From a virus, in IMG/VR virus record IMGVR_UViG_3300046777_002716, positions 1 through 64,000 of that record: a DNA stretch of 64,000 nucleotides; one strand, given 5' to 3'. The notes under the pieces were generated by a model that had not been told where the DNA came from, did not search any database, and saw only the letters and a list, made by a program, of their open reading frames with translations. Positions 623 through 15,685 of the stretch are shown here, in pieces (position 1 is the stretch's first letter; every line of letters begins with the position of its first letter). Made by a program: the position numbers and the translations under genes.

Positions 623-1275
623 ACGTTATTAATGGGATCGTAAACATGTCTTCCATCACCAATATGACTTACAGTCTTATTCTTTAAAGATACTGTATAG
701 TACTCCTTTTTATTGTATAATAATCCAACATCTTTTTCTGATTTACCAACTACTGGTTTTATTTCCTCATATGCAGAAAATTTAAACAAATTTGGATTGT
801 AAGTAAATCCAGGCCACCCATTATATCCAGGAATTAGTATACTAAATTCAGATTCCGTACCTTCCTCATAAACTTCATCTTCGGTTGGATGAGGACTATC
901 CTTCCTAAAAGTAACCTGAATGATATTATCATATTTTTCTAGAATAGGAATACTTCTAGAAATAAATTCACCATCATCAAAATACCAATCATCCTCACAA
1001 TGAAAAACATACTTCGTCTTAACGTAAGAGTATGCTTTATCAATGCTTGCAGGTTGACCTAGTTTTTCTTGATTATAAAGAACTGTCCAATTCTTAAGAT
1101 ACCCATTTTCATTTTCTTCTTTTAATTGTGAGTACCATTCTTGATCAGTTGAGTCATCAATTAAAATTTTTGTCGGAATTTTATCAAGGGTTTCTTTAGG
1201 TATAGACAAGATAGTTTTTTTTAAAAGATCTGGACGATTACAACTCGTCAAAACCATAGTTACGTCAGTATACAT
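619..1275 (-). CDS. Glycosyltransferase family 2
   Basis: LTSCNRPDLL, LIDDS and FHCEDDW motifs of the GT-A fold. Confidence 0.75.
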   Translation of the reverse strand: MYTDVTMVLTSCNRPDLLKKTILSIPKETLDKIPTKILIDDSTDQEWYSQLKEENENGYLKNWTVLYNQEKLGQPASIDKAYSYVKTKYVFHCEDDWYFDDGEFISRSIPILEKYDNIIQVTFRKDSPHPTEDEVYEEGTESEFSILIPGYNGWPGFTYNPNLFKFSAYEEIKPVVGKSEKDVGLLYNKKEYYTVSLKNKTVSHIGDGRHVYDPINNV

Positions 1276-1294
1276 AACATCTCTCCAATTTTAT

Positions 1295-9773: not shown

Positions 9774-9776
9774 ATA

Positions 9777-9849
9777 TGGGTCTGGTGGGGTTTGAACCCA
9801 CAACTTTTCGGTTAAGAGCCGACTACTCTACCAATTGAGTTACAGACCC
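9777..9849 (-). tRNA. tRNA-Lys(CTT)
   Basis: GTCGG-CTCTTAA-CCGAA. Confidence 0.9.
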
Positions 9850-9852
9850 AAG

Positions 9853-11361: not shown

Positions 11362-11399
11362 AAATAGTTTATATTTAACGACCGAACTAAAACGGTCAA

Positions 11400-11471
11400 T
11401 GGGTCTGGTGGGATTTGAACCCACAACTTCCAGGTTAAAAGCCCGTTACTCTACCGTTGAGTTACAGACCC
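11400..11471 (-). tRNA. tRNA-Lys(TTT)
   Basis: ACGGG-CTTTTAA-CCTGG; body nearly identical to tRNA-Lys(CTT). Confidence 0.9.
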
Positions 11472-11485
11472 ATAAAAGGTTTAGA

Positions 11486-12753: not shown

Positions 12754-13425
12754 TTATACTTCAGTGAGAATCATTTTGTTCGCATAGTTATAGGCATAAT
12801 CTGTGCGAGCACCATGATGACCCCAACGAATCCACTTACGGGCAAGACGCATATAGTCATTGATTGTACGACCAGGAGTCTTCATATGTCGTTCAATCAT
12901 TCTCCAGTCAGACTCATTTAACATATAGTCAAGTTGAGTTTCAAGACTGGATGGATTAGCGCCGATTTTGGTAGCGTGTCTTCCAAGACCATTATACCTG
13001 GCAGAATCAGTCCATTGAATTAGACCATATCCACCACTCCTACAACTGTGATAGGAAACTCTAGCACCACCTTCACAAATATTCGGAATGAATGTTGATT
13101 CCTGCCTAATGTTACCCATAATGGTAGCAAGGGCATTTTTGTCATAAATTCCACGGTCTTGCAGGAATGCAAGAGTACGGGATTCATATTTATTACACCC
13201 TTTACAAATAAGTCGCTTTTCTTTTGGTTTTTCGGGAGCAACCTCGCGGATTGCTGTCTTCTTTTCATCTACAAGATCAAACTCTTTAATAATCGAATAA
13301 GGTGCCTTTTCCTCTATTGGAGGAGGGGGACCTTGCATCTTGTAGTTGACGAATGGCAGTGAAGCCGTACTGGTTGTAACCGATGCCAAAAGGGGAACGG
13401 CTACAGTTGTAAAGTTAAAAAGCAT
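12754..13425 (-). CDS. Phage-tail-lysozyme-type cell wall hydrolase
   Basis: ATIMGNIRQES...GYGLIQWT...R...LETQLDYMLNE motif; N-terminal signal-like region. Confidence 0.75.
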   Translation of the reverse strand: MLFNFTTVAVPLLASVTTSTASLPFVNYKMQGPPPPIEEKAPYSIIKEFDLVDEKKTAIREVAPEKPKEKRLICKGCNKYESRTLAFLQDRGIYDKNALATIMGNIRQESTFIPNICEGGARVSYHSCRSGGYGLIQWTDSARYNGLGRHATKIGANPSSLETQLDYMLNESDWRMIERHMKTPGRTINDYMRLARKWIRWGHHGARTDYAYNYANKMILTEV

Positions 13426-13636: not shown

Positions 13637-13828
13637 ATGGCGCGTGAGTGGAATACTCCAAAGCGTGAACCTTGGAACGCACCAATACACCAAATATTAA
13701 AGGCGATAGACAATCATACAAGATTGTGGATGGAAACTGGAGATCTATGGCACAGAGACCAAGCAGAGTACCTTAGATCTTATGTTAATGAATTGAAAAC
13801 CTGGATACACAAAGAAGAGGGTCGTTAG
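13637..13828 (+). CDS. Hypothetical protein (cyanophage type)
   Basis: 63-aa ORF; late promoter CTAAATA upstream. Confidence 0.7.
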   Translation: MAREWNTPKREPWNAPIHQILKAIDNHTRLWMETGDLWHRDQAEYLRSYVNELKTWIHKEEGR

Positions 13829-14295
13829 GACCTCCAGAGTTTTCCTTCTGCTTTCCTTCGTCTTGCAAGTCCCGCCTCAACGTCAGTACCAGGATCTCTA
13901 TAAAGATACAAAGCATTGGGAACTTTATCCCATTCCTTGTTTTTCAAGACCCGTGTAATAGTATCAAAGTTAGGAGCACCATAGAAATCTGCACCAAGAT
14001 TGTAAGCAAAGCAAAGTAGAGCCCCTCTTTGATTGTCATTCATTTCCCCCCAATAAGGTATTTTCCTGAGTTCTGGAAGAAACTCATTTTGGATTTGATA
14101 ATCAAATAGGTCATCTGCTTCTTTTTGTGTAATCTTTTCTCCCAGTTTGAAAGGAGACCCACCCTTTTTACGGGTACTTCCCCATCCTACAGTATAAGGT
14201 TTTCCTTTCGTTTTAGGGTCTGGATAGGCAACTAAATGACAATTTTCAAATTCTTTGATGAGTTCTACTCCAGATTGTGGAATAGAACTATCTAC
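13825..14295 (-). CDS. GH24 lysozyme domain, reachable only in the -1 frame of the upstream ORF
   Basis: Frame open from 14295: VDSSIPQSGVELIKEFENCHLVAYPDPKTKGKPYTVGWGST...GLARRRKAEGKLW; no ATG/GTG/TTG before 14043. Confidence 0.85.
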   Translation of the reverse strand, partial: VDSSIPQSGVELIKEFENCHLVAYPDPKTKGKPYTVGWGSTRKKGGSPFKLGEKITQKEADDLFDYQIQNEFLPELRKIPYWGEMNDNQRGALLCFAYNLGADFYGAPNFDTITRVLKNKEWDKVPNALYLYRDPGTDVEAGLARRRKAEGKLWRS

Positions 14296-14984
14296 TTTTT
14301 TACTGGTTCGAAGATTCTACCCCACCCGTCATTGCCTGCAGGGCACCATCTACGGGCAAGTTCTGAACGCTTGTAGACTGCACCCTTACCGTTCGCTACG
14401 GCACCCGTATATCCGTCATTGAGACTGCCATAGGGGTCGTTGACAACATAATCCCCATTTGGTGTCTTACCAATGACTACAACCATGTGCCCACCAGTAG
14501 GTGCAGAAAGAGGACCCCTGTGTAAGATACCAATAACAACAGGTCTACCGTTGGATAATTCACGATCAAGATCAGAAAAAGTAAGATTGTAACTAAAACG
14601 TGAATTGAGACCATAACCTTGTAGAACACGGGTTTGAACCGCATGATCTGTTGTATCACCAATTGCGAATACTTTGCGAATGTATGCATCATCGCCTTTG
14701 GGTCCTACGAGTGTGCCTGGTTTAATATACTCAAGACACATCGCACAGGCAGATGAATTACAGGTTCTATTTGCGTCTCTATAATTATCTGTCTGTGGAT
14801 AAAATGGTACAGTAAGAATATTGTTCTTTGGAGGTTGTACTTTGGTCCTATAGACCTTCACCCACTCTGCGGTATCATCTAGGAATAGACCAGGCAAAGC
14901 ATTTTCAAGAATCTCAACTGCTTTAACGTGATTAGGATTCTTCTCGTCGTAATACTTGAAAAAATTGTGGAGGTCGATTTTCAT
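14292..14984 (-). CDS. Peptidase C39-like protein (N-terminal part of a frameshifted endolysin)
   Basis: VPFYPQTDN...TCNSSACAM...GGHMVVVIG...VNDPYG (Cys-His-Asp); ends GTA AAA AAG TAG. Confidence 0.8.
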   Translation of the reverse strand: MKIDLHNFFKYYDEKNPNHVKAVEILENALPGLFLDDTAEWVKVYRTKVQPPKNNILTVPFYPQTDNYRDANRTCNSSACAMCLEYIKPGTLVGPKGDDAYIRKVFAIGDTTDHAVQTRVLQGYGLNSRFSYNLTFSDLDRELSNGRPVVIGILHRGPLSAPTGGHMVVVIGKTPNGDYVVNDPYGSLNDGYTGAVANGKGAVYKRSELARRWCPAGNDGWGRIFEPVKK

Positions 14985-15247: not shown

Positions 15248-15685
15248 ATGACTTGGAAATATAATGGTGAGGACTTTATTGAAGTTCCTAAAAAAATGGA
15301 AGGTTTTGTTTATATAATTACCAATATTACTAATGATAGAAAATATATTGGTAAAAAACATTTTTGGACAAGACAAAAAGATAGAAAAACTGGTAGAAGA
15401 AAAACTAAAGAAAGTGATTGGAAAAATTATTATGGTTCTTGTGATGAATTAAATGAAGATGTAAAAAATCTAGGTAAAGATAAATTCATTAGAGAAATAT
15501 TATATCTTTGTCCTCATAAAAAAAGTATGAGTTATTATGAAACCTATGAACAGTTTACTAGAAATGTTCTTATGGATGAAAGTTATTACAATACAAATAT
15601 TGAAGGTAAGTTCTTTGAAAGTGAAAGAACCAATATTTATGAAGCAGTTCTCAAGAGTACCTCATTAGATTTCTTAGTGTCTTAG
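15248..15685 (+). CDS. GIY-YIG nuclease family protein
   Basis: GFVYIITN...RKYIGKK...YYGS...E...YYNTNI. Confidence 0.8.
   Translation: MTWKYNGEDFIEVPKKMEGFVYIITNITNDRKYIGKKHFWTRQKDRKTGRRKTKESDWKNYYGSCDELNEDVKNLGKDKFIREILYLCPHKKSMSYYETYEQFTRNVLMDESYYNTNIEGKFFESERTNIYEAVLKSTSLDFLVS

Follow-up and report, generated by a model that had tools for sequence, protein, structure and literature searches.

We analysed a stretch of 64,000 nucleotides (nt) from a freshwater T4-like cyanophage, positions 1 to 64,000 of the IMG/VR virus record IMGVR_UViG_3300046777_002716 (hereafter the window), and describe here a lysin locus on its minus strand. At this locus an open reading frame (ORF) for a cell-wall peptidase ends in a candidate slippery heptamer, which is followed by a predicted hairpin and by a lysozyme encoded in the -1 frame. 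The features of the locus are as follows.

14292..14984, minus strand: peptidase ORF, 230 amino acids, ATG start; N-terminal module and C39-like cysteine peptidase, matching phrog_3617 positions 1-233
14838..14984, minus strand: N-terminal module, residues 1-49, predicted dimer interface (homodimer model); the module also heads the separate lysozyme genes of relatives
14430..14816, minus strand: Peptidase_C39_2 domain (Pfam), residues 57-185
14295..14301, minus strand: slippery heptamer A_AAA_AAG, in X_XXY_YYZ phase in the 0 frame; conserved in 75 distinct junctions
14292..14294, minus strand: 0-frame stop TAG, immediately 3' of the heptamer
14261..14289, minus strand: predicted stimulatory hairpin with a 12-bp stem and a 5-nt loop, separated from the heptamer by a 5-nt spacer
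13825..14295, minus strand: -1 frame of 156 codons and a stop, linker and GH24 lysozyme, without a usable start codon
13846..14256, minus strand: Phage_lysozyme domain (PF00959, Pfam), inside the -1 frame

The peptidase ORF is closed by the codons GTA AAA AAG TAG, and its protein ends in ...EPVKK. The -1 frame begins after an upstream stop and is open from 14316; its 156 codons are counted from the GTA at 14295, and its stop lies at 13827-13825. The two ORFs overlap at 14316-14292, and the heptamer sits within this overlap, phased in the 0 frame. The third reading frame is full of stops. The first ATG, GTG or TTG of the -1 frame is the ATG at 14043, far 3' of the codon for the catalytic Glu (14247-14245). 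Since the lysozyme has no start of its own, slippage would be its only route of expression. The predicted products are of 230 and 386 amino acids, with ...EPVKK joined directly to VDSSIPQ... in the longer one. The motif AAAAAAGTAG alone is not rare in this AT-rich window (0.6 matches expected and two found, a count that 12 of 100 shuffles attain), so the weight of the case comes from its context and conservation. The heptamer at the end of the peptidase ORF, the 12-bp hairpin 5 nt downstream, the 156-codon lysozyme frame and the lack of a standard start before the Met at 14043 had all been pointed out in a first-pass annotation of the letters, and each of them was confirmed on the minus strand.

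The run of six A residues was checked in contigs, not in raw reads. A Logan contig (about 92x depth) from what is likely the source sample matches the window letter for letter over 13800-14373 and has the same A6 run, and a contig from an unrelated freshwater sediment study is identical over 14210-14360, also with A6 and without an indel. The extra A that the first-pass annotation had named as a possible homopolymer error is present in neither. A co-occurring relative in the same sample (loose contig ends, runs X1/X2) diverges at 14307 (GCAAAAAAGTCGTACGCTCCACTT...); it keeps the heptamer and has no stop directly after it. Nothing of the stretch was found in the one metatranscriptome examined (X21).

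Against Pfam, the 230-amino-acid ORF matched Peptidase_C39_2 (PF13529) over the whole profile (1-143 of 143; E 8.6e-13, 49.5 bits against a cut-off of 24). C75 and H166 of this domain are invariant among 33 homologues and are presumably the catalytic pair of the C39-like peptidase. The sequence search with this half gave no solved relative. Classical C39 peptidases cleave double-glycine leader peptides. The fusion with a lysozyme, together with the label 'endolysin' of phrog_10051, suggests that the C39-like half cleaves peptidoglycan peptides rather than leaders.

The -1 frame matched Phage_lysozyme (PF00959), likewise over the whole profile (1-125 of 125; E 3.3e-19, 69.9 bits against a cut-off of 22.3), and carries the catalytic residues E17 (in FE; E247 of the fusion), D26 (in YPD) and T35 (in YTVGWG). 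Its solved GH24 relatives include 9kbq, 6et6 and 2anv (P22 lysozyme), with E down to 4e-9. The family phrog_3617 (405 positions) matches the peptidase half and then the lysozyme half consecutively, which means that single-chain relatives exist. Judging from these domains, the product is a putative endolysin. Single chains in the reverse order (lysozyme then C39), which match phrog_10051, were observed in S-CREM1 (L003) and in three other loci (L007, L039 and L084), and they carry no frameshift signal.

The hairpin at 14289-14261 is formed by the arms AGTTCTATTCCA and TGGAGTAGAACT around the loop CAATC, with 11 Watson-Crick pairs and one G-U pair. Folded in context it reaches -17.8 kcal/mol (z = -4.1), and none of 200 shuffles folded as well. 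A role as a terminator was rejected: there is no T-run 3' of the stem, and the element is absent from the terminator scan. A pseudoknot in this window was rejected too, the loop being of only 5 nt.

The nearest isolates are T4-like cyanophages of the Kyanoviridae. In S-PM2 the layout is identical: the peptidase ORF closes with GCA AAA AAG TAA, the lysozyme lies in the -1 frame and a stem is formed by AGCTCTACTTCC...GGAGTAGAGCT. The S-PM2 lysozyme frame has no start until a late Met, which opens the annotated 72-amino-acid 'putative lysin'. The 1184 nt of this locus are identical between two GenBank records. Eighty further loci were taken from IMG/VR solely by similarity of the lysozyme domain and are unbiased for heptamer and stop; they showed the following arrangements.

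21 of 80 loci: start-less -1 layout, N AAA AAG TAR, with overlapping lysozyme
20 of 80 loci: peptidase stop overlapping an ATG (ATGA), lysozyme gene with an additional N-terminal domain
27 of 80 loci, one of them truncated: two separate genes with a real TAAGGAG-ATG start
1 of 80 loci: in-frame peptidase-lysozyme fusion
3 of 80 loci: reverse-order fusion
8 of 80 loci: no peptidase within reach

The heptamer was present in every start-less -1 arrangement of this set. Two pattern scans raised the number of distinct start-less -1 junctions to 75, S-PM2 included, with A_AAA_AAG in phase. The codon before AAA AAG ends in A in all 75 (GCA in 38, GTA in 32, others in 5), and the 0-frame stop, TAG or TAA, follows the heptamer directly in 71 and one codon later in the remaining four. 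All 69 complete junctions keep an open -1 ORF of 156-171 amino acids, and the E..D..T catalytic motif is kept in 75 of 75. The linker varies in length and sequence, and in none of the junctions does a stop interrupt the -1 frame between the lysozyme and the heptamer. No ATG, GTG or TTG precedes the catalytic Glu in the -1 frame of 41 of the 75 junctions, and a start preceded by a motif like a Shine-Dalgarno (SD) sequence was found in two. An internal promoter for the lysozyme was considered and set aside, as no promoter-like site was seen on the minus strand between the ORFs in a scan that is a weak test.

Two further loci contain the heptamer, TAR and a -1 lysozyme (..INLIKEFEG..) beside an unusual upstream frame. 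In L095 (match 1296-1375) this frame is unlike the usual peptidase end, and in L144 (match 1206-1285, minus strand) its stop lies two codons before KK. Possibly the cassette is joined to another partner in these loci, or the copies are broken.

The stem is placed 3-8 nt 3' of the heptamer in 72 of 74 junctions (first pattern scan set). The conserved G-V-E-L codons of the lysozyme are the usual place of the 3' arm, in the window too, and the 5' arm falls in the variable linker. The arms vary by lineage with complementarity retained, and at least eight sequence families of stems can be distinguished, some in a different register (for example AGTTCTATTCC/GGAGTAGAACT, AATCAACACCACA/TGTGGTGTTGATT and GCCAACCAAC/GTTGGTTGGC). 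The mean pairing energy of a 5' arm is -15.4 kcal/mol with its own 3' arm and -6.3 with foreign ones. In one family RNAalifold gave 13 pairs, five of them with changes on both sides (e.g. AU:13, GC:7), and at one position of another family the pair is UA, UG or CG.

The hairpin is a property of the heptamer class. Heptamer junctions gave z = -2.7 (against shuffled upstream sequence) and 36 heptamer-less junctions +0.18, with L028 as the sole strong hairpin among the latter. Its absence where the lysozyme gene has its own start agrees with the reading of the first-pass annotation, and most homologues in which C39 is followed by lysozyme are not hairpin-less in-frame fusions.

The in-frame fusions (ACG-2014f with close contigs, and L028) read exactly the sequence that is the -1 frame elsewhere. 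Both lineages retain A_AAA_AAG and a hairpin 5-6 nt 3' of it, and in them it is the -1 frame that stops after one codon (KKV*, KKA*). Slipping in these phages would truncate the protein and would give the same two products, which is suggestive in the two lineages.

Taken together, a phage cell-wall peptidase gene very probably ends here in a dnaX/IS3-type cassette for programmed -1 ribosomal frameshifting. The long peptidase-lysozyme is most likely made only via a slip back of one base, in the phage of the window as well as in S-PM2 and about 75 relatives. The first-pass annotation had proposed such a frameshift with products of 230 and about 386 amino acids, and the 75 junctions, the covariation of the arms and the lack of a conserved start now support it.

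In the proposed mechanism, most ribosomes would read ...GTA AAA AAG and terminate at TAG, giving the 230-amino-acid protein of module and C39-like peptidase. A fraction would be held up by the 12-bp hairpin, which resists unwinding, while the two Lys codons occupy the P and A sites. The Lys tRNAs would re-pair one base back (AAA AAA), decoding would resume with GTA GAT AGT..., and the 156 residues of linker and GH24 lysozyme would be added to give the 386-amino-acid protein. The ratio of the short to the long form would be set by the efficiency of the slip. The conserved signals suggest that slippage takes place at this site, and the two forms would presumably act in lysis.

Residues 1-49 of the peptidase protein make up a module that lies outside its C39 domain. 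In one of the separate-gene relatives (L043:1291-1500) a copy of the module heads the lysozyme gene as well, with 66% identity to that of the window (E 9e-25), and a module copy together with a real TAAGGAG-ATG start was also found in the lysozyme genes of L049, L054, L058, L061 and others. As separate lysozyme genes carry their own copy, the lysozyme seems always to need the module. The N-terminal domain of the ATGA-class lysozyme (MTIKF...) resembles the peptidase module by eye only; BLASTP gave no alignment between the two, and we do not claim homology.

A homodimer model of the 230-amino-acid form, built with the alignment of 33 homologues, reached an ipSAE of 0.60 (median), compared with 0.00 for the best control out of three. 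The calibration mark of this score is reached by 20 of 30 solved homomers and by 1 of 23 monomers, and it is a rough guide here since a custom alignment was used. Three runs share at least 79% of contacts, the pLDDT (predicted local distance difference test) of the partner is at least 83, and confident interface residues occur only in 1-49. The model supports pairing through the N-terminal module. Short and long forms would presumably meet through this common part and could form mixed dimers, and the peptidase and lysozyme of the separate-gene relatives could likewise pair through it.

Three other explanations were weighed. The lysozyme could belong to a second gene and be made as a free enzyme, translated either from a non-canonical start of its own (ATT, ATA, GTA) or through termination-reinitiation at the stop of the peptidase. 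An ATT codon (the I of a conserved I-P) does occur in the linker of the window, S-PM2 and S-SRM01, the peptidase stop of the relatives like S-SRM01 overlaps an ATG or GTG, and many relatives encode both enzymes in separate genes. Yet neither ATT, which the first-pass annotation had allowed for, nor any other start is conserved among the junctions, and the -1 frame always remains open into the heptamer despite the variable linker. Independent initiation also leaves the invariant phased heptamer and the covarying stem at frameshift spacing unexplained, and a bare lysozyme would lack the module which the lysozyme of separate-gene relatives carries. We therefore give this explanation only a small chance.

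The slip could also be made by the RNA polymerase, which would add an A in the A6 run so that some mRNAs encode the fusion in frame. One inserted A gives the identical protein, and transcriptional slippage is used by Thermus dnaX (PMC5009743). Against this, polymerase slippage in Thermus is tied to two Lys tRNAs (PMC5009743), and Synechococcus WH7803, the host of S-PM2, has a single tRNA-Lys. Transcriptional slippage needs no codon phase, no G at position 7 and no hairpin 3-8 nt 3' of the run, and all three are conserved here. Sites of this kind are long homopolymers, typically of 8-9 or more A/T. The run is only A6 and is never longer in the 75 junctions. This explanation appears slightly less probable again than independent initiation.

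The remaining explanation, that the homopolymer was misread or misassembled or that the locus is a pseudogene in decay, has a nearly negligible probability: one extra A would restore a single ORF and the evidence on the run comes from contigs, but an error is very unlikely given the many independent assemblies and the S-PM2 records, as the same frames recur in 75 junctions from many samples and in both S-PM2 records, the 92x contig and that of the independent study agree without an indel, and the -1 ORF is intact with its catalytic motif throughout.

Some points do weigh against the programmed frameshift. The junctions from the pattern scans were selected for heptamer and stop, leaving the 80-locus set as the only unbiased one, and the junctions are related by descent, so that their counts are not counts of independent events. 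No upstream SD stimulator is demonstrated: the only G-rich element upstream of the heptamer is TGGGG (W-G-R codons), 14-17 nt away, which is present in non-frameshifting relatives too, its GGGG being fixed by the protein in all classes. The relatives like S-SRM01 (S-SRM01 itself is L001; also L206, L208, L213 and L221) keep A_AAA_AAG with the lysozyme ATG or GTG overlapping the peptidase stop, and their hairpin is weak (-4.6 to -10.4 kcal/mol). Independent initiation of the lysozyme is possible in this lineage, which may be an intermediate between frameshifting and separate genes.

The proposed cassette finds its closest parallel in dnaX of E. coli (tau/gamma), where the same heptamer A_AAA_AAG, a 3' stem-loop a few nt away, two products with a common N-terminus and a sole tRNA-Lys(UUU) are found (PMC5009743); the counterparts here are the heptamer, the hairpin, the two predicted products and the single tRNA-Lys of WH7803. 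In the 'reversed' dnaX of some bacteria the long product is made by slipping, as proposed here, and the 0-frame stop lies directly after the site, as it does here; at an efficiency of about one half, the roles are reversed by one nucleotide change (PMC5009743). The in-frame lineages of ACG-2014f and L028 resemble this role reversal, and slipping would truncate in them as in E. coli dnaX. There are differences from dnaX. The gene here is a phage cell-wall hydrolase and not a polymerase subunit, the evidence is comparative, and the stem sequence is rebuilt per lineage in different registers. The upstream SD stimulator is a feature of dnaX, and it is not universal.

The orfA-orfB pair of IS3-family insertion sequences (IS911, IS150, IS3) also has A_AAA_AAG and a downstream structure; its fusion protein arises by slipping close to where the first ORF ends, and the second ORF lacks an efficient start (PMC5009743). 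The hairpin here is simple, with a 5-nt loop too short for a pseudoknot. The structures of some insertion sequences are more elaborate, for example a three-way junction in IS911, or pseudoknots. Among phages, the lambda-like tail assembly chaperone G/GT is a conserved -1 frameshift whose two products, a short one and one extended at its C-terminus, come in a fixed ratio (PMC5009743). G/GT differs from our case in its heptamer, in the lack of a strong 3' structure and in its role in structural assembly. The lambda heptamer is G_GGA_AAG. In the endolysins Lys170 and CTP1L, an internal in-frame start yields a shorter protein beside the full-length one, and the two assemble together. Those endolysins use a second start and their extra product is the C-terminal binding domain, whereas here it would be the N-terminal part, made by recoding.

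Lysine tRNAs bear on the efficiency of such a slip. The window encodes 32 tRNAs, two of which are for lysine.

9776-9850, minus strand: tRNA-Lys(CUU), possible trans-acting modifier of slippage at AAG (context)
11399-11472, minus strand: tRNA-Lys(UUU), slip-prone isoacceptor (context)

The first of these was already in the first-pass annotation and is indeed present; the second had been overlooked there. The two have acceptor, D and T arms in common and are clear paralogues; the CUU gene looks like a duplicate of the phage UUU gene with an altered anticodon arm. In S-PM2 (NC_006820.1, 118.2-123.1 kb) the main tRNA array lies within a few kb of the lysin locus, like in the window, and this synteny is conserved.

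A full tRNA census of Synechococcus WH7803 gave 43 tRNAs with a single tRNA-Lys, which is UUU. In RCC307, Cyanobium N.Huapi 1H5 and two other Synechococcus, an anticodon-arm pattern search found Lys(UUU) and no Lys(CUU); one CUU pattern match in these four picocyanobacterial genomes was rejected as not a tRNA. BLAST of host genomes with the phage tRNA-Lys(CUU) gene gave nothing useful. The host evidence comes from these five picocyanobacteria. In E. coli the sole tRNA-Lys(UUU) makes A_AAA_AAG highly shift-prone, the most shift-prone of heptamers (PMC5009743). A single host tRNA-Lys(UUU), as in E. coli, supports the frameshift mechanism.

The first-pass annotation had speculated that tRNA supply tunes lysozyme output and the timing of lysis. 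The phage tRNA-Lys(CUU) might compete for the AAG in the A site, pair tightly with it, lower slippage once the phage tRNA array comes to be expressed and thereby set or time the ratio of the short to the long form. The idea is coherent for a host type with only Lys(UUU) to which the phage adds CUU, and we consider it unlikely. Lys(UUU) is the only Lys tRNA of S-PM2, of a complete 222-kb relative and of a third contig, and two other phages of the frameshift class are without a Lys tRNA. The CUU gene accompanies the largest tRNA sets, with the frameshift (L139) or without it (L377, L406), and does not track the frameshift. AAG makes up 35% of Lys codons in the long ORFs of the window, so general decoding explains the gene, which counts against a dedicated role. 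An exact scan for this tRNA-Lys(CUU) in IMG/VR gave 0 matches, and a looser pattern of its D arm proved generic to many phages.

As to the surroundings of the locus, the next gene downstream (12757-13425, minus strand) encodes a second wall hydrolase with Phage_lysozyme2 (PF18013) and a hydrophobic N-terminus. Just upstream lies a gene for a SegE-type GIY-YIG homing endonuclease (15248-15682, plus strand), and homing endonuclease genes flank the lysin locus in S-SRM01 and S-CREM1 too. No psbA was found in the phage record, which is 48% complete.

Our literature search, with most subscription journals outside it, gave no publication on frameshifting in cyanophage lysins or other endolysins and none on a recoding site in a phage cell-wall hydrolase; PMC2908710, PMC3014915 and PMC10665884 were looked up and gave no description of this frameshift. 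As far as this search shows, the proposed mechanism is a classical one that had not been described for this gene family. The locus would be a widespread natural case of a dnaX-type cassette in a phage cell-wall hydrolase, and its lineages have seemingly flipped between slipping to extend and slipping to truncate.

T4-like cyanophages kill a large share of ocean and lake picocyanobacteria, and little is known about their lysis genes. Reference genomes annotate the lysozyme wrongly: the 72-amino-acid 'putative lysin' of S-PM2 starts after the catalytic residues, and the real product is probably a two-enzyme protein of 43 kDa. This is a concrete case for gene callers to correct. S-PM2 on Synechococcus WH7803 offers a tractable model pair, in which the single tRNA-Lys gives clear predictions, and it opens a route for testing whether phage tRNAs modulate recoding. 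If the competition of tRNA-Lys(CUU) at the slip site were true, the balance between short peptidase and long peptidase-lysozyme would be set, or timed, by a tRNA that the virus itself encodes.

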